IMG/VR virus record: IMGVR_UViG_2671180427_000010
DNA: 17,783 nucleotides
Direction: 5' to 3' (one strand)
DNA from: a virus
Lineage: Duplodnaviria; Heunggongvirae; Uroviricota; Caudoviricetes
Shown: positions 2,784-17,608 of the stretch, piece after piece
Layout: the number at the start of each line of letters is the position of its first letter
Position numbering within the stretch: the first letter of the stretch is position 1
Translations under genes and position numbers: made by a program
The notes under the pieces: generated by a model
What the model was told of the DNA's origin: nothing
The model's input: only the letters and a program-made list of their open reading frames with translations
Databases searched by the model: none

Positions 2784-3035
2784 TATCGCGTCCTCAACAA
2801 TGAATTTTGTGATGCGGTGCCTGGTGCCTCCAGGTGACGTTAACCAGTTAACAATTAACGCCGGATACAGAGAATCCACCCATAACACTGTTTTTGGTTT
2901 TAACTGTTCCGCGTGCGCTCAGCCGCATTCACCGCATCACAAAATTCACTTTAAAAACGGCGGCAGAGCAGTCACGGAGTAAAACTGATACCGCCAAACG
3001 TCACCAGAAAATTGATAACAGAGGGCGTTGCAGCG

Positions 3036-5424: not shown

Positions 5425-6427
5425 AAAGGTGAAAACCGGCAGTTCATCCAGTAAGTCAGTATTGACCTGGCTTGCTGATATGTGCGGTGCCGATTTGTGT
5501 GCATACCCGTCTGTATCTGCCCTGGCAGAAGTAACGGAACTGAACAAAAAGACAGTGCAGGACAGCTTACGACACCTGATGGAGATTGGGTTAATTGTTG
5601 ATACCGGTGAGAGAAAAGGCAGAACAAAGCAAATTGTGGTGTACCGACTTATCGGTGTAGAAGAAAGTGTTGCCGAACCTGAATACACCCAAAAACGGGA
5701 GTCTTTAAAGGTGGGTAAAATTGGTGCTGTTAATAAAAACAGTACCGAAAATGGTTATGTTTCAGCACAAAACAGACCCAAAAACGGAACTCTTAGCTGC
5801 ATGGAAAATAACCAAAGACACCCAAATTTTCCATCAAAGACACCCAAAAACGGATCACGGAACCCAAAGGAACCCAAAGTTCTAAACCCCACACATAACG
5901 CACGCGAGAGTGCTCTGACCAGTGAGCAGGAAGTTTTGTCGTTACAGGCAGTATTCCTGGATGGCCTGAGAGAACCCATCGGAAAATTTCTGATGACCGA
6001 TAGCTGGCATCCGTCGCGGGATTTTCGACGACGGGCTGCGTTGTGGGGGATGGCTTTGCCGGAGCCGGAATTTACACCTGCTGAACTTGCCGCATTCCGG
6101 GATTACTGGAGTGATGAGGGGAAAGTGTTTACGCAGATTCAGTGGGAGCAGAAATTCGCCCGTCACGTAAATCACGTCAGGGCGCAGGTTAAACCAGTCA
6201 GCAAGGGGGTGAACCATGCAGCAGCACCAGGGGGCACCGCATCACGGGCAGTTCAGGAAATTCGGGCAGCACGTGAGCAGTGGGAACGTGAAAACGGATT
6301 TATCCGCGACGGAAACGGCGTGGAAGCTGTGGGAACTCATGGGGGAGGTTTATTCGAACCGCTGGACCCAGAAGAACGGGGCCGCACCTTCGAAGCTCTG
6401 GATTGCACAGATTGGTGCGATGACTGA
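5396..6427 (+). CDS. phage replication initiator, lambda O-like (winged-helix N-terminus, repeat-rich linker), 343 aa
   Basis: ATG 5396 with AGGGG 5 nt upstream, 29-nt overlap with upstream gene. N-terminal wHTH (LTWLADMCGADLCAYPSVSALAEVTELNKKTVQDSLRHLMEIGLI). Low-complexity linker encoded by iteron-like DNA repeats. Upstream of P-like gene. Confidence 0.6.
   Translation: MSIDALRWAKKVKTGSSSSKSVLTWLADMCGADLCAYPSVSALAEVTELNKKTVQDSLRHLMEIGLIVDTGERKGRTKQIVVYRLIGVEESVAEPEYTQKRESLKVGKIGAVNKNSTENGYVSAQNRPKNGTLSCMENNQRHPNFPSKTPKNGSRNPKEPKVLNPTHNARESALTSEQEVLSLQAVFLDGLREPIGKFLMTDSWHPSRDFRRRAALWGMALPEPEFTPAELAAFRDYWSDEGKVFTQIQWEQKFARHVNHVRAQVKPVSKGVNHAAAPGGTASRAVQEIRAAREQWERENGFIRDGNGVEAVGTHGGGLFEPLDPEERGRTFEALDCTDWCDD
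5772..5880. repeat. iteron-like direct repeats (ACCCAAA-containing) inside O-like gene; candidate replication origin
   Basis: AGACCCAAAAACGGA at 5773, AGACACCCAAA at 5816 and 5839, tandem GAACCCAAAG x2 at 5860-5879. AT-rich stretch immediately to the left (about 5720-5770). Confidence 0.45.
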
Positions 6428-6881
6428 GCAGCAAATCCGACAGGTCTGCCGCCAGTGCATGGACCGCTGCCGGGAGGGTGAAACATGGCCTCCGGACCTG
6501 GCTGAGTTTGTGGCACTGATTTCGGAAAGCGGAGCCAATCCATTCGGTCTGACGGTGGATGCTGTGATGGAGGAGTACCGCCGCTGGCGCAATGAGTCCT
6601 GGCGATACGACGGAAGTGATAAGTACCCGTGGTCTCAGCCTGTGCTGTATCACATTTGCCTCGAGATGCGTTCAAAGGGGGTTGAGCGCCAGATGACCGA
6701 AGGGGAATTAAAACGGCTTGCAGAACGGCAGCTGACGAAATGGGCAAAGCATGTTAGTAACGGCCTGAGCGTTCCGCCAGTCCGGCGACAACTGGCGGCA
6801 CCCAAACGCCCGTCGGGGCCAACGCCAATTGAGTTGCTGAAACAGGAATATGAACGCCGGAAAGCGGCTGGGCTTGTTTGA
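6216..6881 (+). CDS. replication protein P-like (lambda P family helicase loader), 221 aa
   Basis: ATG 6216 preceded by AGGGGGTG. Motifs resemble recalled lambda P (MTEQQIRQ, YPWSQPVLYHICLEM, TEGELKRLAERQL). Alternative start ATG 6420 overlaps the O-like stop (ATGACTGA). Confidence 0.6.
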   Translation: MQQHQGAPHHGQFRKFGQHVSSGNVKTDLSATETAWKLWELMGEVYSNRWTQKNGAAPSKLWIAQIGAMTEQQIRQVCRQCMDRCREGETWPPDLAEFVALISESGANPFGLTVDAVMEEYRRWRNESWRYDGSDKYPWSQPVLYHICLEMRSKGVERQMTEGELKRLAERQLTKWAKHVSNGLSVPPVRRQLAAPKRPSGPTPIELLKQEYERRKAAGLV

Positions 6882-6913
6882 GTTGAGAAGTAATTTTTAC
6901 CGGGAGGAAATTT

Positions 6914-7188
6914 ATGGAGACTGTTTTTGACGCACTGAAAGCAATGGGAAAAGCCACATCCATAGAACTTGCTGCGCGCGTGAAGAAGTGCTGAACGAAC
7001 TATGGGAACTGAAAAAGGCTGGTTTTGTTGATAAAAGCGCGTACACCTGGCGTGTGGCTGATAACAACGTTCAGCAGGAACAGCCAGCGCAGGCAGAACT
7101 GCCGGAAGAAACCACCACAATGAGTGAAGTTATGCAGCGCATACTGGCATTTTATCAGGGAAATGTTCGATATTTTAGACGTTACTAG
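6914..7188 (+). pseudogene. small winged-helix protein gene apparently split by a 1-nt frameshift near 6988
   Basis: ATG 6914 with GGGAGGAAA upstream encodes [26 protein letters not shown] then stop at 6992. Continuation in another frame from 6988 ([23 protein letters not shown]) resembles the intact small gene at 16375. Confidence 0.35.
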
Positions 7189-7554
7189 ATTAAAGAGCAT
7201 TAGTTCAGATGTGAATTGACATTGTGTGGCACAGGGTTGGGCTAGCGTGGGGGTTTGCTTTGTGTAAGAAACGGATGCTCTGCAAATTACTACTAATGCT
7301 TAATGTTAGTCTGATCTGCTCCCCGATGATTAATACACCGCTATGTTAGTAATGTCTGTAGATCGCTGTGTGTTGCATCCATCGGTTGACCCCACAGTCC
7401 AAACCAGACTGTCAGCTTTGATTCGATTCTATCTACTCAACCTGTCAGGTAATGTCTGAGCTAATACACAGAGTACGGCTATCGCGAACTTTAAGCTAGG
7501 TATCTGATACGCACCGTTCACTTGTTTGTACTTCTTGCACTGACTAGCTATCGT

Positions 7555-7590
7555 GCGCAGTTATTTATAGGTAATCTCCAGTGTATAATT
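7555..7590 (+). promoter_or_regulatory. candidate promoter for the 281-aa gene (TATAAT -10 at 7584-7589)
   Basis: Consensus TATAAT at 7584-7589 with TG immediately upstream, about 40 nt before ATG 7628. The -35 is weak (TTATTT at 7561-7566). Confidence 0.35.
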
Positions 7591-7627
7591 TTCCAACTTA
7601 TGGGAGATTGTAAAACAGGAGGAATAT

Positions 7628-8473
7628 ATGAGGAAAAAATCGTTTGGACGTTGCCCGTTTGATTTCGACGAAGATGTAAAAAAAATAGCCGCGATAAATA
7701 AATATATCCATGCGAAATTTGAGAGGCATAAAAATAAAATAGATAACCTAAAGGGGGTGGAACAAAAATTGATGGTTTTACATTACTTTAATGTACTGAA
7801 TGAACTTAGTAATCAGGCTATATTTTCTTTGAGTACCGGAGCCTTTTCAGCATCGGAAGTATTAACTAGAGTTATAATGGAACAGGCTGCCAATCAATTT
7901 TATATAGCAATTGATGATGGAAAAAATGCACAAGCATTACTCAAGGGTAGTAAGAAATTAGTTCATAGTAATGGGAAACGGTGGCTGGAGTGTTTAAAAT
8001 CCAAAGAAATGACTAATCCAGCAGCAGATGAAAGGATTCGTATCGGAAAAGAGCTAACTGATATGTTTAATAGATTGTGGCCAAATACACCTGAATATCC
8101 TGGAACCAAAAAGCTTTTCGAAGTAATTGGCTGGGAAACACACTATCATGCCTATTACGTCCCTCTTTGTGATTCAATACATACATTCTCTGATGATATG
8201 GCAAATATAGTATCTCTATATAATGCAATCCAAAGCGATAAAACTACTGCTATCGAACTCACTCTTGCAGTTAAACAAGAAAATAAACGGCTGGCAATTT
8301 ATAATGTCGTAATTGCTATTGGCCTGCGGTGTGAGGCCTTAGTAAATGTATTTAACTCTTTAGGTTATCGAGATATTATAACTGAAATGGCGCCAACAAT
8401 AGATGCAGTCAACCAGATTATAATTCGATATGATGATTTCGAACATTCCAGAATTTTTATTGTCAATAATTAA
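7628..8473 (+). CDS. hypothetical protein (281 aa), AT-rich, no recognised domain; candidate accessory or defence gene
   Basis: ATG 7628 preceded by AGGAGG (7616-7621). ORF track 281 aa. No Walker, RT or nuclease motifs seen by eye; a C-terminal R-x5-H (RYDDFEH) is too weak to interpret. Confidence 0.75.
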   Translation: MRKKSFGRCPFDFDEDVKKIAAINKYIHAKFERHKNKIDNLKGVEQKLMVLHYFNVLNELSNQAIFSLSTGAFSASEVLTRVIMEQAANQFYIAIDDGKNAQALLKGSKKLVHSNGKRWLECLKSKEMTNPAADERIRIGKELTDMFNRLWPNTPEYPGTKKLFEVIGWETHYHAYYVPLCDSIHTFSDDMANIVSLYNAIQSDKTTAIELTLAVKQENKRLAIYNVVIAIGLRCEALVNVFNSLGYRDIITEMAPTIDAVNQIIIRYDDFEHSRIFIVNN

Positions 8474-8526
8474 TTGGCAGAATTCGTACATGCACAACAA
8501 CTAGTTATAGTTGACCTATTTCGCTC

Positions 8527-9095
8527 TTGAGAGACAACCATACTCAAATCTTCCACATTGCAGGAGATTTGAGTATGAATACGTCACCGAGGAACAAAGA
8601 CAGTATCATAGGCCCAAAAAGACCACTTCAGATATCTCATATCTGGGGGCTCCAAATCCGGCTTGAACTGGAAGGTAAAACGCGTGATTTAGCTCGGTTT
8701 CAAGCAGAGCTACGGTGCTGCAACTGAAAAACTGGCAGTCCTATCCAATTTGAGATAACCAAAGGGACAAGAGAAGCTGTTTCTGCATTGATAAAGCTTG
8801 GCAATTTACGCAGTAAAGACTACTTGTTCCGATCTCGGGTCGGTACTAACCAACACATATCAATCCTGCAATATAACCGAATCTTTCATAGGGGGGAGAA
8901 AAGCTTGGTCTCGAAGATTCGCTTTACAGCACACATTCCATGAGAAGAACAAAACCTTGCCTTGTCTGCAAGAAAACTAAGAATCTCCGGGTGATCCAAC
9001 TTCCGTTGGGCCATAAGAAAACGGAAAGCACAGTTCGTTATCTGGGTATAGAAGTTGATGATGCATTAGAGATCTCTGAATCGATCGAAGTCTAA
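8527..9095 (+). pseudogene. tyrosine recombinase (phage integrase) C-terminal fragment with in-frame stop and frameshifts
   Basis: Frame 1 reads GLQIRLELEGKTRDL, in-frame TGA at 8725-8727, then KTGSPIQFEITKGTREAV...DYLFRSRVG. A second frame has RRFALQHTFHEKNKT. A third frame (8940-9095) ends RVIQLPLGHKKTESTVRYLGIEV, matching the conserved integrase C-terminal LGH...T..Y motif. Confidence 0.55.
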
Positions 9096-9101
9096 AGCTG
9101 T

Positions 9102-9123
9102 CAGGGCTGCAGCAGCAGCCCTG
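9102..9123. other. perfect 9-bp stem hairpin (CAGGGCTGC-AGCA-GCAGCCCTG) just after the integrase fragment
   Basis: Exact inverted repeat with 4-nt loop; no U-tract on either strand, so not a typical intrinsic terminator. Confidence 0.4.
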
Positions 9124-9507
9124 TGCCAAGAGCGTACCAATATATGTCTCAAAAAATTGGGCACAGGTCAATATCAATACCAACAACTCTGATTGTGCTC
9201 ATGTGATTTACTCCTGTAGAAAACGCAGACAGTAAAAATATTTCACTGGCTGCTTCAGACAGGGCGTCCATCATATCATTACATAACAATAGCGGGGCAC
9301 GATATCTAGACATGCAGCAACGATGGACATAGAATGAGTACAATCAAAAGCATGTTTAACTACTTTAATTTAAAAATCTTAGAATCTTAGGTGTAGAGTT
9401 CAATACTTAGTTACATACCCTTTTGAAAGCATCACAAATCATAACTATGAGCCTGTTAAAGGCATAGGTATTCTTAATTAAGAGCATTTTAATGAGAGAA
9501 AAATAAA

Positions 9508-10881
9508 ATGAAAAGACTATATTATACCCATCATGATAGTCGAACCTTAAAACTTGCTATAGAAGGTGATGTTTCTGATAATGCGAATATTTTTACAGTA
9601 ATTGTAGGTAAAAATGGCGTTGGAAAAAGCAGATTGTTATCTCAGATTGCTAAAGACTGTATTCAAGATGTTCATTTCTTGAAAACTTTTAATCCATTAT
9701 TTGACAGAGAAATAACACCAAAGTTAATTGCCGTATCTACCAGCCCATTCGATAAATTCCCTCCAGGGCGTAGGTCATTAAATCACCAAAGGAAAGAAAA
9801 TAATTATCGCTATGTGGGTATGCGTGGAGAAGGCCCCTTCGGCGTATCAAATGCCGTATCCCTTTTATCTTCAGCAGCGAGAGGTTGGCTAGAGAAACTT
9901 GCTTATTCAGAAAATCCTGCAAATTTACTCGATGTTTTTCATTCTATTGATTTTGAGCCCCATATAGAGTTTGTATTTAAACCAACTTACAACGGACCGG
10001 ACACTCCTGACTATAACTTCATTGGTGTATATTCAGATGAGATATTAACGGAAGTTAAGGAGTTATATTTAAAATACAATATAAAAATTGACAGGAAGAA
10101 TATTGAGAGTCTCTTAAAGTTAAACTCCGAATCACGTCATGATATTTACGAAGCACTGGTTGAAATTAATCGATTTGAACCTGAACGTAGGGCTGTAACC
10201 TTGTCAGTCGATTTTACCAATGGTGAAACATTGGTTGGCTCGACTTATGCGAATAATTATTTTTCTAGATCAATTCTTAAACTTATGAACGCTGGCTTCA
10301 TGAGATTGATGGATATGCGACTCATAAAAAAAAGCTATGGTCCCATGTCACTTAAACGTGCGAGCTCGGGAGAACAATGTTTATTAGTGATGTTGCTTGG
10401 AATTGCAGGGCATATAACTGATGGTTCTATAATATTAATTGATGAACCGGAAATAAGCTTGCATCCTCGATGGCAGGAAGAGTTTATCATTATGTTAACA
10501 AAAGCATTTTTAACTTACTCAGGTTGTCAATTCATAATTGCAACTCATTCACCACAAATAATATCCAATTTGCCGAATAAAGGTTGTTATATAACATCTT
10601 TGTCGAAAAGTTATCTTTATAAAGCAAAATACTTTAGCAACCGGTCTGCAGACTATCAACTTGCGGAACTATTTGATGCCCCTGGCATTATGAATGAATA
10701 CATTGCCAGGTTAGCTTTCAATTTACTTTCAAAAGTTAAGACTGCTAAGTTAGTAACAGATGATAATTGGCGTGAATTAAAACAACTCCAACTTCTCCTT
10801 GAAAACGTTAATAGTAATGACCCTATTAATGAACTCGTAAATTCCGTATCTCAGGTGTGTGAAATTTATGCCAAAAATTAA
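9508..10881 (+). CDS. ptuA: ABC-type ATPase, Septu PtuA-like (457 aa)
   Basis: Walker A VGKNGVGKS, signature-like SSGEQ, Walker B IILIDEPE, H-loop IATHSP. AT-rich. Followed by an overlapping HNH nuclease gene, the Septu two-gene architecture. Confidence 0.7.
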   Translation: MKRLYYTHHDSRTLKLAIEGDVSDNANIFTVIVGKNGVGKSRLLSQIAKDCIQDVHFLKTFNPLFDREITPKLIAVSTSPFDKFPPGRRSLNHQRKENNYRYVGMRGEGPFGVSNAVSLLSSAARGWLEKLAYSENPANLLDVFHSIDFEPHIEFVFKPTYNGPDTPDYNFIGVYSDEILTEVKELYLKYNIKIDRKNIESLLKLNSESRHDIYEALVEINRFEPERRAVTLSVDFTNGETLVGSTYANNYFSRSILKLMNAGFMRLMDMRLIKKSYGPMSLKRASSGEQCLLVMLLGIAGHITDGSIILIDEPEISLHPRWQEEFIIMLTKAFLTYSGCQFIIATHSPQIISNLPNKGCYITSLSKSYLYKAKYFSNRSADYQLAELFDAPGIMNEYIARLAFNLLSKVKTAKLVTDDNWRELKQLQLLLENVNSNDPINELVNSVSQVCEIYAKN

Positions 10882-11503
10882 AAATCCAATTAGATTCAGC
10901 GCAGAGTCATTAGATATTATTGAGAAAAAATTGTCTTCTCCAGATTTTAAGCATACCAACTGGGGAGATGATGATTTGCAAGTTCTCCGTGCAGAAATTA
11001 GAAATCATTACAGAGAAGAACAAAAGCTAGAATGTGTATATTGTCATGAGCCTATTGGGGTAAGAGCTGCACAAGCTGCTCCTATAGAGCATATTGTGCC
11101 AAAATCTCAATATCTATGTTTTATTTTTGAACCTAAGAATCTATGTGTAGTATGTCCTGACTGCAATGAATTCAAAGGTAAAAATGAAGTGTTATTTGAA
11201 CCCGTAATAAATGGGGGGCGGCGCAAAAACTATCCAACTGCATCTGCATCATTTCGCATCGTTCATCCACATATAGATGATTATGAGATGCATATTATAA
11301 AAGCAAATCGTGTTTATGTGGACAAAACACCTAAAGGGCACTATACCATTGGAATATGTAAACTAAATAGATTTTTTCATTATTTTGGGATGTGTGATGA
11401 ATTTGTTAATGATGCAAAAATTGCTGAGGCAAATGAAAATTTTTTCAAAAAAGGTAGTATTACTACTAATGAATTATTGGATGATGACATTCATTTGATT
11501 TAA
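10868..11503 (+). CDS. ptuB: HNH endonuclease, Septu PtuB-like (211 aa)
   Basis: HNH motifs CVYCHEPIG, IEHIVPKS, CVVCPDCNEFKG. ATG 10868 overlaps ATPase gene end by 14 nt (ORF-track start 10859 is GTG). Confidence 0.7.
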   Translation: MPKIKNPIRFSAESLDIIEKKLSSPDFKHTNWGDDDLQVLRAEIRNHYREEQKLECVYCHEPIGVRAAQAAPIEHIVPKSQYLCFIFEPKNLCVVCPDCNEFKGKNEVLFEPVINGGRRKNYPTASASFRIVHPHIDDYEMHIIKANRVYVDKTPKGHYTIGICKLNRFFHYFGMCDEFVNDAKIAEANENFFKKGSITTNELLDDDIHLI

Positions 11504-11816
11504 CTATGAATTATTATATTGTAAAGTAATCAGGTAAGATATGTTAGACAGTGAGACTATTGCCTTACAGAATTCATTATTCTTATGGATCGCCTTTCTG
11601 ACTGATTTCATATTGGCGGGGTAACGGGAGTTAAGTAGAATGGCTGCGGGTGCTTGAGGCTATCTGTCTCAGGCATGAACACCAAAGGCAGATAGAGAAA
11701 AGCCCCAGTTAACATTACGCGTCCTGCAAGACGCTTAACATTAATCTGAGGCCAATTTCATGCTAGACACATGTAGGTTAGCCTCTTACGTGCCGGAAGG
11801 CAAGGAGAAGCAGGCT

Positions 11817-11972
11817 ATGAAGCAGCAAAAGGCGATGTTAATCGCCCTGATCGTCATCTGTTTAACCGTCATAGTGACGACACTGGTAACGAGGAAAGAC
11901 CTCTGCGAGGTACGAATCCGAACCGGCCAGACGGAGGTCGCTGTCTTCACAGCTTACGAACCTGAGGAGTAA
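11817..11972 (+). CDS. hokD: Hok/Gef-family type I toxin, HokD (RelF)-like, 51 aa
   Basis: Protein MKQQKAMLIALIVICLTVIVTTLVTRKDLCEVRIRTGQTEVAVFTAYEPEE matches the Hok family (TM helix, conserved C and Y). AAGGAG 8 nt upstream of ATG 11817. ORF-track start at 11760 is an in-frame extension. Confidence 0.8.
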   Translation: MKQQKAMLIALIVICLTVIVTTLVTRKDLCEVRIRTGQTEVAVFTAYEPEE

Positions 11973-14601: not shown

Positions 14602-14631
14602 TGACCATATACATTGTCCGGGGCTATATTC
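14602..14631 (+). promoter_or_regulatory. PR'-like late promoter (TTGACC, 18-bp spacer, TATATT)
   Basis: -35 TTGACC 14602-14607 and -10 TATATT 14626-14631, immediately downstream of the Q gene. Confidence 0.5.
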
Positions 14632-14692
14632 CTCGCGCGTCAGCAAAATCTGGCGTCGGGATTGGAACCCCGGATATTCAACCGCGACAGAC

Positions 14693-14717
14693 ACACGCCG
14701 CGAGCGTGTTTTTTATT
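14693..14717 (+). terminator. tR'-like intrinsic terminator (Q-antiterminated)
   Basis: Stem ACACGC/GCGTGT with CGCGA loop followed by TTTTTTATT, about 75 nt downstream of the PR'-like -10. Confidence 0.55.
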
Positions 14718-14878
14718 GTCGTAAGCACACGCACATCTGAATAATGGTGGGGCGTATGGGGGAGCTGAAAGGCTCGCCGGTTGGTTGATCCGGTAGTTCC
14801 AACCCTGTACGTCTCACCACCCAATGATTGGAACCTGACGGTGGTGATAGTTAAATCCATCAACCAGAGGGCGTTATC

Positions 14879-15541: not shown

Positions 15542-16262
15542 TGCACAGAAAACCCCCAGCTAGGCTGGGGGTTCCGGAAAGCTTTCAGCTTTGAGCCAGT
15601 TATTAAAACCCCTTTTGATTTGTTAAAACACCTTGCGGTCTGGCAACTGCAAGTGTCAAACAAGAAATCAAAAGGGGGTCCCAATGGGGAACGAAAAGAG
15701 CTTAGCGCACACCCGATGGAACTGTAAATATCACATAGTATTTGCGCCAAAATACCGAAGACAGGTGTTCTACAGAGAGAAGCGTAGAGCAATAGGCTGT
15801 ATTTTGAGAAAGCTGTGTGAGTGGAAAAGTGTACGGATTCTGGAAGCTGAATGCTGTGCAGATCATATCCATATGCTTGTGGAGATCCCGCCCAAAATGA
15901 GCGTATCCGGCTTTATGGGATATCTGAAAGGGAAAAGCAGTCTGATGCTTTACGAGCAGTTTGGTGATTTGAAATTCAAGTACAGGAACAGGGAGTTCTG
16001 GTGCAGAGGGTATTACGTCGATACGGTGGGTAAGAACACGGCGAAGATACAGGATTACATAAAGCACCAGCTTGAAGAGGATAAAATGGGAGAGCAGTTA
16101 TCGATTCCCTATCCGGGCAGCCCGTTTACGGGCCGTAAGTAACGAAGTTGGATGCAAATGTCAGATCGTGTGCGCCTGTTAGGGCGCGGCTGGTAAGAGA
16201 GCCTTATAGGCGCATTTGAAAAACCTCCGGCTATGCCGGAGGATATTTATTGTGCCCGAAAA
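15532..16262 (+). mobile_element. IS200/IS605-family insertion sequence (IS200-like); boundaries approximate
   Basis: Contains Y1 transposase gene. Subterminal hairpins with 8-bp stem and 3-nt loop on both sides: CCCCCAGC-TAG-GCTGGGGG (15552-15570) and CCTCCGGC-TAT-GCCGGAGG (16234-16252). Ends estimated, not determined. Confidence 0.5.
15684..16142 (+). CDS. tnpA: IS200-type Y1 transposase TnpA (152 aa)
   Basis: MGNEKSLAHTRWNCKYHIVFAPKYRR...HIHMLVEIPPKMSVSGFMGYLKGKSS...NREFWCRGYYVDTVG has the HUH motif (HIHML) and catalytic Y region of IS200 TnpA. AAGGGGG upstream of ATG 15684. Confidence 0.85.
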   Translation: MGNEKSLAHTRWNCKYHIVFAPKYRRQVFYREKRRAIGCILRKLCEWKSVRILEAECCADHIHMLVEIPPKMSVSGFMGYLKGKSSLMLYEQFGDLKFKYRNREFWCRGYYVDTVGKNTAKIQDYIKHQLEEDKMGEQLSIPYPGSPFTGRK

Positions 16263-17448: not shown

Positions 17449-17524
17449 GGCCTTTTAGCTCAGTGGTGAGAGCGAGCGACTCATAATCGCCAGGTCGCTG
17501 GTTCAAATCCAGCAAGGGCCACCA
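17449..17524 (+). tRNA. tRNA-Ile2-like, anticodon CAU (lysidine type; could be Met by anticodon alone)
   Basis: Hand-folded cloverleaf: acceptor GGCCTTT/AAGGGCC, D-arm GCTC-AGTGGTGA-GAGC, anticodon loop CTCATAA, T-arm GCTGG-TTCAAAT-CCAGC, discriminator A, CCA. Resembles recalled E. coli ileX. Confidence 0.75.
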
Positions 17525-17531
17525 TCACATA

Positions 17532-17608
17532 CCGCCATTAGCTCATCAGGAAAGAGCGCCAGCTTTCGAAGCTGGTTGCGCGGAGTTCGGGTCCCCGAAG
17601 GCGGTCCA
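17532..17608 (+). tRNA. tRNA-Arg-like, anticodon UCG, with non-canonical T-arm (possibly degenerate)
   Basis: Acceptor CCGCCAT/AAGGCGG (one mismatch), D-arm GCTC/GAGC, perfect anticodon stem CCAGC/GCTGG with loop TTTCGAA, T-arm CGGAG-TTCGGGT-CCCCG (one mismatch, G at position 58), CCA. Confidence 0.5.

Follow-up and report, generated by a model that had tools for sequence, protein, structure and literature searches.

Which function should be assigned to a lone, AT-rich gene that sits in a lambdoid prophage of Escherichia coli, at the head of an islet that also carries a defence system? The gene in question occupies positions 7628-8473 (+ strand) of a viral DNA of 17,783 nucleotides (nt), IMG/VR record IMGVR_UViG_2671180427_000010, which was analysed over its full length and is called the window. 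The window is a Qin/Rac-like lambdoid prophage of E. coli. An original prediction, drawn from the letters of the sequence, regarded the 281-residue product as an orphan and proposed that it is either a single-gene abortive-infection or exclusion protein or an unrecognised partner of the module downstream. The product proved to belong to Pfam family DUF5677. Its gene is intact, is under purifying selection, possesses its own conserved 5' region with a ribosome-binding site and a -10 box, and has no conserved partner. On the reading we prefer, it shares no joint function with its neighbours in the islet, the Septu system and a tyrosine recombinase. We put at about even the chance that it is an autonomous single-gene prophage moron with a role in conflict or defence, probably an enzymatic one. 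The context in which it is found strengthens the case for a candidate single-gene defence or exclusion protein, which is thereby supported in part.

The open reading frame (ORF) at 7628-8473 starts with ATG and was borne out by the ORF call and its translation, as well as by Pfam, PHROG, AlphaFold and substitution analyses. It is more than a chance ORF, since the ratio of nonsynonymous to synonymous substitution rates (dN/dS) between alleles lies between 0.2 and 0.4, which indicates purifying selection. The guanine-plus-cytosine (GC) content of the gene is 0.348, with 0.27 at third codon positions (GC3), against 0.366 for the islet (7265-11575) and 0.48 for the backbone on either side of it. 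The AT-rich, islet-like composition claimed at the outset is thus real. So is the ribosome-binding site: inspection of the sequence places the Shine-Dalgarno motif AGGAGG at 7617-7622 (+), 5 nt 5' of the ATG. It is retained as AGGAG(A/G) in the copies of the gene found in P2-like prophages and in Buttiauxella, and reads AGGGG in the copy of Bacterium BS0013.

The proposal that the gene is expressed from its own promoter fared less well. In its favour, a perfect TATAAT hexamer is present at 7584-7589 (+), 38 nt upstream of the start codon, within the block TATTTATAGGTAATCTyCAGTGTATAAT, which is invariant in an alignment of four genomic contexts. Indeed, some 200 nt 5' of the gene are near-invariant across four different genomic contexts. 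This putative promoter has no good -35 element, and a sigma-70 consensus scan did not report it, because no -35 hexamer scores 4 of 6 or better. Between 7000 and 9600, promoter-like sites were no more frequent than in shuffled sequence. The promoter is therefore weaker than claimed. The conserved 5' region was also searched for a small ORF, a known RNA family (Rfam) and a stable RNA structure, and none was found.

At the other end of the gene (8455-8473), a 1-nt indel sets apart the window allele, together with two genomes that are identical to this allele. It changes the C-terminus to ...IFIVNN, as against ...IFYCQ in strain E2348/69 and ...DDCQ in the other alleles. The change falls beyond the last conserved helix of the protein.

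The designation of the product as an orphan without recognisable domain does not hold. Pfam DUF5677 (PF18928 / IPR043733) is matched with 37.4 bits against a gathering cut-off of 27.1 (E = 3.4e-9); residues 49-195 align with profile positions 3-159 of 166, a span that includes R81, E85 and H185. The 45 relatives that were aligned with the window protein all pass the same threshold (best E = 3e-20). PHROG 4167, whose function is unassigned, is matched at 1e-175, and RefSeq already names the protein of enteropathogenic E. coli (EPEC) E2348/69 (WP_001227887.1) a "DUF5677 domain-containing protein". Neither a function nor a structure has been assigned to the family, and a literature search by protein accessions returned nothing. 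Compared with the Pfam core, the window protein bears added helices at its N- and C-termini. The enterobacterial clade around it is small, since an exhaustive HMMER search of 1.84 billion representative proteins detected only 54 clusters at E < 1e-3.

The protein (32 kDa, pI 8.2) is predicted to be soluble and all-alpha. AlphaFold, supplied with the 45-sequence family alignment, returned a model of ten helices and no strands with a predicted local distance difference test score (pLDDT) of 95.1 and a predicted template modelling score (pTM) of 0.91. The alignment was needed, as the single-sequence model reached a pLDDT of 39 and was unusable. Comparison of the model by Foldseek with the PDB and with the viral predicted structures of BFVD gave no whole-fold relative (best E = 0.05, template modelling score at most 0.25), and a profile search of PDB sequences produced chance matches only. 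The remote-homology search thus delivered a family, in Pfam and PHROG, without a fold relative. Profile comparison of the N- and C-terminal halves gave no sign of an internal duplication. As far as the predicted fold can tell, fold and conserved site together match nothing that has been characterised.

Five residues, R81, E85, F164, Y173 and H185, are invariant across the family alignment, and nine others (E77, L79, N89, W119, P158, S183, D190, N193 and Y225) are conserved in at least 90% of its members. E77, R81, E85 and N89 recur at intervals of four residues and thus share one face of helix 3. In the AlphaFold model, S183-x-H185 and D190-x-x-N193 flank a kink between helices 7 and 8. This conserved polar pattern probably marks an enzyme or a specific ligand site, in which the residues would cluster in three dimensions.

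Glutamate, arginine and histidine make up the usual chemistry of metal-independent ribonucleases. The HEPN ribonucleases of abortive infection (AbiV, AbiD/F Abi_C, RnlA and similar) were also considered. No arginine is found 4-6 residues before the invariant H185, with which the stretch ...PLCDSIH of the window protein (SDSVH in the family consensus) ends, and the invariant R81 resides in another helix than H185. None of the 45 members matches a HEPN family in Pfam at E values up to 1, and no Abi or HEPN model of PADLOC is matched either. For want of the Rx4-6H motif and of any matching HEPN sequence model, the protein is not filed as HEPN. In other respects the motif survey of the original prediction stands: Pfam detects no Walker, reverse transcriptase or nuclease domain in the window protein. 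Nor is there evidence of a transmembrane segment, the Kyte-Doolittle maximum over 19 residues being 1.58, on a predicted bundle helix.

How the gene came to be where it is can be read from its boundaries. In the window it is part of a low-GC islet at 7265-11575 that interrupts the lambdoid backbone, with the replication-P/DUF1627 region on one side and sok/hokD on the other, and that was delimited by GC content and by comparison with a related prophage, L005 (loci used for comparison are given as L numbers). Backbone homology to L005 ends at 7264 and restarts at 11576; the islet is absent or replaced there, and L005 has different cargo. The islet comprises three separable units, namely the DUF5677 cassette, the tyrosine recombinase unit and Septu. 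As defined by blastn and alignment, the minimal DUF5677 cassette of some 1.1 kb extends from about 7431 to 8515 (+) and consists of the conserved 5' region of about 200 nt, the coding sequence and 42 nt downstream. The blastn limits of shared DNA are 7469-8515 with L015 (Bacterium BS0013), where homology starts near 7431 in the alignment and the cassette stands alone, and 7311-8703 with L002, L003 and L016. The additional 120 nt at 7311-7430 are common only to the P2-like copies and to that of a Buttiauxella metagenome-assembled genome (MAG). The gene has the attributes of a prophage moron: it is an insert, its GC content is 0.35 in surroundings of 0.48, it has a ribosome-binding site and a conserved -10 box, and no more than 57 of the 5426 complete E. 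coli genomes carry it.

The gene is intact in all 57 genomes, in two alleles. Nineteen genomes harbour the islet in full, at an identity of at least 99%. The other 38 carry the second allele, which is 92% identical (about 88% at the amino acid level) and comes without Septu. The two second-allele genomes that were inspected, IHE3034 and 2021CK-01784, both hold it in P2-like prophages, at the exact junction of G, the gene for tail-fibre assembly, and FI, the gene for the tail sheath. Like the P2 morons at this place, the sister allele is AT-rich and has its own regulatory region. Z/fun of P2 is one of these morons at position 2, between G and FI. No homologue of the window gene, Fun(Z) included, occurs in the collection of deposited phage genomes (INPHARED), since a tblastn search there gave no match. 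Wiles et al. (PMC3573123) termed the G/FI site P2 "moron position 2", and a 2026 survey (PMC13586616) counts the tail-gene region of P2 as a defence hotspot.

At the P2 site, the motif CAGACTGTCAG stands at both edges of the G/FI insert, as a direct pair and one inverted copy (L003 6635-6645, - strand; 6758-6768 and 9068-9078, + strand). A single copy is located upstream of the window gene, at 7405-7415. The motif was discarded as a recombination site, being absent from other contexts of the recombinase, and may be a remnant of the mechanism of insertion at the P2 site. A 35-nt imperfect inverted repeat (7541-7575 / 9278-9312) was likewise set aside: its right arm lies in islet-specific DNA, and the repeat is probably due to chance.

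Beyond E. coli prophages, relatives are carried by 20 viral contigs of IMG/VR. Among plasmids, tblastn retrieved a single 8.4-kb record, which bears the same islet. More distant homologues occur as integron cassettes. That of Vibrio parahaemolyticus (L007 1290-2141) lies between two of 16 attC repeats distributed over 10 kb, which resemble the Vibrio cholerae repeat (VCR) and whose ends pair when folded as single strands; it thus has attC-like repeats on both flanks, as an integron cassette should. In Aliidiomarina soli (L026 159-1004), an attC-like repeat starts at the end of the ORF, as a downstream site. Both loci (L007 1-10141 and L026 1-8893) are chromosomal integron arrays, in which co-oriented small ORFs are each followed by an attC-like repeat; these repeats were not reported by any Rfam model. 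Phage defence is among the functions that integron cassettes can carry (Kieffer et al., bioRxiv 10.1101/2024.07.02.601719), and in the Vibrio and Aliidiomarina arrays the distant DUF5677 homologues likewise form single-ORF cassettes at attC-like sites. The literature that was searched reports no test of a DUF5677 integron cassette. Unlike the cassettes of Kieffer et al., the window copy has no attC and has its own 5' region, and its identification as an integron cassette was rejected on these grounds. In sum, the gene moves as a discrete cassette among lambdoid and P2-like prophages and chromosomal islets, and its distant relatives reside in integrons.

This distribution bears on one way in which the gene might serve the prophage itself, as a factor of counter-defence or of competition between elements, be it an inhibitor of a defence system or a factor of the lytic cycle. 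The gene is co-oriented with the early-right replication genes, such that a phage early promoter could read it; anti-defence genes also occur in defence hotspots, and inhibitor proteins are often helical bundles. Against this, the invariant or near-invariant residues (Arg, Glu, His, Ser, Asp and Asn) suggest an enzyme and not a stoichiometric inhibitor, homologues exist outside phages, either in integron cassettes or alone on a chromosome, and 281 residues are many for a typical anti-defence protein. We consider such a role distinctly unlikely.

The original prediction was right in placing the gene at the head of a defence-type islet. The module downstream is Septu, made up of ptuA (9508-10881, +; ATPase of 457 residues, PADLOC PtuA E = 1e-165) and ptuB (10859-11503, +; HNH nuclease of 214 residues, PADLOC PtuB E = 1e-83, Pfam HNH). 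The two genes overlap and both are matched by full-length models, which makes the system complete. Could the DUF5677 protein be a third component, sensor or regulator of it? The two share islet, strand and similar GC content, and the gene is found in 19 of the 19 E. coli genomes that have this Septu allele. Among complete E. coli genomes, the allele occurs only inside this islet. The 19 co-occurrences are copies of one islet, at least 99% identical, and thus amount to one event. Conversely, the gene occurs without Septu in 38 of its 57 genomes. Moreover, about 1 kb separates the two, filled with the recombinase pseudogene and a promoter-like site of its own 5' of ptuA (9307-9335), PtuA and PtuB match the complete two-gene models, and PADLOC finds no Septu model in the DUF5677 protein. 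The suggested partnership with the downstream module is not supported, and we hold it to be the least probable of the alternatives weighed here.

The second neighbour is a tyrosine recombinase of 200 residues, recognised by its annotation in E2348/69 and, in intact copies, by PF00589. Its unit in the window (8521-9128, +) is a pseudogene, decayed by a deletion of about 70 bp near 8703 and by stop codons; the E2348/69 copy is annotated as frameshifted with an internal stop. Intact copies are present in L004, L005 and L006 (each at 6016-6618) and in L003 (7950-8534). They contain PF00589 only, without an arm-binding domain. The recombinase is found in about 801 of the 5426 E. coli genomes (about 15%). 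In each of four unrelated contexts the unit is bounded at identical bases, its ends being TCGCTC ... CCCTGTGCCA.

It is conceivable that the DUF5677 protein is an accessory factor of this recombinase, for instance a directionality factor or a regulator. The two genes lie side by side and in one orientation in the lambdoid, P2-like and Buttiauxella copies. In Bacillota, a published study placed DUF5677 with the most strongly enriched domains in the vicinity of serine recombinases by which defence loci are marked (adjusted P = 2e-92, n = 25). Their units, on the other hand, have separate boundaries (8515 versus 8521), and the recombinase is present in some 801 E. coli genomes against 57 for DUF5677. 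DUF5677 occurs without any recombinase in BS0013, in Aeromonas, in Pseudomonas and in integron arrays, and is intact where the recombinase is a pseudogene. An accessory role is largely refuted by this distribution and is very improbable; the recombinase is a neighbour of DUF5677, not a partner.

Several repeats accompany the recombinase unit. Its right end, CCCTGTGCCA, is an inverted copy of TGGCACAGGG (window 7227-7239 and 9116-9128). The latter is part of the lambdoid backbone, some 30 bp to the left of the islet boundary, and is seen in the window and in L005 (2770-2779, 6642-6651). The pairing of CCCTGTGCCA and TGGCACAGGG is statistically at chance level (0.9 matches expected), although its position is suggestive. 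A perfect 13-bp inverted repeat, CATACTCAAATCT ... AGATTTGAGTATG, at 8539-8551 / 8565-8577 covers the ribosome-binding site and start codon of the recombinase and is kept in the P2-like copy (L003 7914-7928 / 7938-7952); it might serve as an operator, as a hairpin that acts on translation or as a site of recombination. A further inverted repeat, of 7 bp, found at the ends of the recombinase unit in the window, was dismissed as a recombination site, being unconserved elsewhere.

The company that this recombinase keeps in other genomes speaks to the nature of the DUF5677 gene. Three other arrangements were sampled. In L004 (E. coli Nissle), the candidate defence gene HEC-08 is immediately upstream of the recombinase. 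In L005, which occupies the same lambdoid hotspot as the window, PD-T7-1 has this position, and in L006, PD-T7-5 is found two genes downstream. PD-T7-1 is an experimentally validated single-gene defence (PMC9519451). Like DUF5677, these three (PD-T7-1 and PD-T7-5 are from Vassallo et al. 2022) are solitary low-GC genes without a partner that lie by the same recombinase, and PD-T7-1 and HEC-08 occupy the very slot of DUF5677, directly upstream of it. They differ in orientation, being opposite in strand to the recombinase with which DUF5677 is co-oriented, and in their support, which is experimental for PD-T7-1 and comes from sequence and context for DUF5677. Homology to any of the three was rejected, as hhalign of the family profile gave probabilities below 1%. 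Further variable neighbours of the recombinase are a CBS-domain protein and an ETEC_3214-family protein. It looks as if the recombinase were a marker of exchangeable slots for single-gene defences.

Neighbourhoods were further surveyed by an all-versus-all comparison of ORFs within 3 kb at 19 loci. No recurrent neighbour emerged, save the recombinase in two closely related loci. A type II toxin had been considered as an identity for the product and was rejected, since the 5' region has no conserved small ORF and no neighbour is conserved in the 19 loci. The individual neighbours are often of the defence type. A PLD-family nuclease gene lies directly downstream of the BS0013 copy, and the Morganella homologue has RhuM and an insertion sequence as neighbours. 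In L048, a myovirus-like IMG/VR contig, a low-GC islet (5743-8596) that follows the tail tube gene contains the homologue with Abi_C and a 290-residue protein; L049 (6043-8509) has a similar gene order, the domain scan having covered L047 and L048. L047 (5995-9497) combines the DUF5677 homologue with SLATT_4, a 348-residue protein and a SMEK_N protein. These tail-module islets of L047, L048 and L049, all of low GC, look like further phage-borne defence islets.

Some members of the family thus lie near defence-type genes or at a hotspot, with Septu, Abi_C, SLATT/SMEK, PLD and RhuM as neighbours and the P2 G/FI site as a location. The picture differs at 13 distant loci, which were found with a 12-sequence subset of the family alignment. 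The 91 neighbours there are mostly housekeeping or regulatory genes, with few matches to defence models, and enrichment in defence islands is for this reason not general across the family. Other observations weigh in the same direction, against a defence role. The tally of defence-type neighbours given above is a raw listing without background control. No family of PADLOC-DB v2.0.0 or of the NCBIfam defence models matches the window protein, and PADLOC yields scattered single weak matches over its 45 relatives. The gene is seen in prophages and IMG/VR contigs only, INPHARED having given no match. The catalytic reading of the conserved residues is derived from their conservation. In the only published test, the DUF5677 ORF of Enterococcus faecalis was outside the five of nine ORFs that reduced plaquing of an Enterococcus phage panel. 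Finally, P2 moron position 2 also houses neaT, a fitness and virulence gene (PMC3573123); in strain CFT073 it encodes an acyltransferase and lies on the opposite strand.

Some of these points would be expected of a moron of lysogenic conversion that, like neaT, affects the host cell and not phages, be it in its physiology, its surface, its tolerance of stress or its virulence. The occupation of the same P2 site by neaT, the many distant homologues that stand singly among metabolic and regulatory genes, the failure of the Enterococcus homologue to appear among the protective ORFs and the many adaptive functions of integron cassettes all agree with it. The recurrence of defence-type neighbours in unrelated phages and islets argues against it, as do the enrichment of DUF5677 at recombinase-marked defence loci and the lack of a signal peptide, a transmembrane segment or a metabolic domain in the window protein. 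We judge a conversion function outside defence to be rather unlikely.

If the DUF5677 gene is a moron with a defence role, events might unfold as follows. The gene would be expressed from the lysogen, and its protein would act alone against phages, by abortive infection or superinfection exclusion, to the benefit of prophage and host alike. The invariant site centred on Glu, Arg and His would be catalytic. Its likeliest activity would be the hydrolysis of nucleic acids or nucleotides, either triggered by infection or aimed at the invading phage. A bolder version of this proposal, which we put forward only tentatively, makes DUF5677 the founder of a new family of one-protein anti-phage systems. 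Such a family would have a helical fold without solved relative and a Glu/Arg/His site that is not of the HEPN type, and would be disseminated in two ways, in integron cassettes and as cargo beside an undescribed 200-residue tyrosine recombinase, which has base-precise ends and resides among single-gene defences in about 15% of E. coli genomes.

The remainder of the window is typical prophage DNA. Upstream of the islet are dicB/DicF, YdaT, a DnaT-like protein and replication protein P, and downstream are sok/hokD, rem, DUF968 and RusA; in E2348/69, an IS481 element has come to lie between Septu and hokD. Rfam models match at 2958-3009 (-), 11648-11822, 14624-14824, 15551-15674 and 17449-17605. 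The RNAs identified are DicF, sok (11648-11822, with hokD), the C4 antisense RNA with its a1/b1 targets and isrK, STnc490 and two tRNAs, all of them ordinary features of Qin/Rac-type lambdoid prophages.

What, then, does the locus teach? The DUF5677 annotation itself was already known, and an AT-rich moron in a prophage hotspot is of a familiar kind. The slot-marking recombinase is a more unusual by-product of the analysis than the DUF5677 gene. Present in roughly 1 in 7 E. coli genomes, where it flanks validated single-gene defences as well as unknown genes, it could provide a marker with which to mine for candidates, in parallel to the use made of serine recombinases in Bacillota. The DUF5677 gene is a cheap and well-defined candidate for phage challenge, and is of moderate interest. 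Should it not be defensive, it would be an ordinary moron with an unassigned role. Should it protect, this would be the first function for DUF5677, which would then join the short list of single-protein defences. Its fold and site being unlike those of characterised effectors, protection could also bring to light a new biochemical activity, accessible through a small, easily cloned gene.

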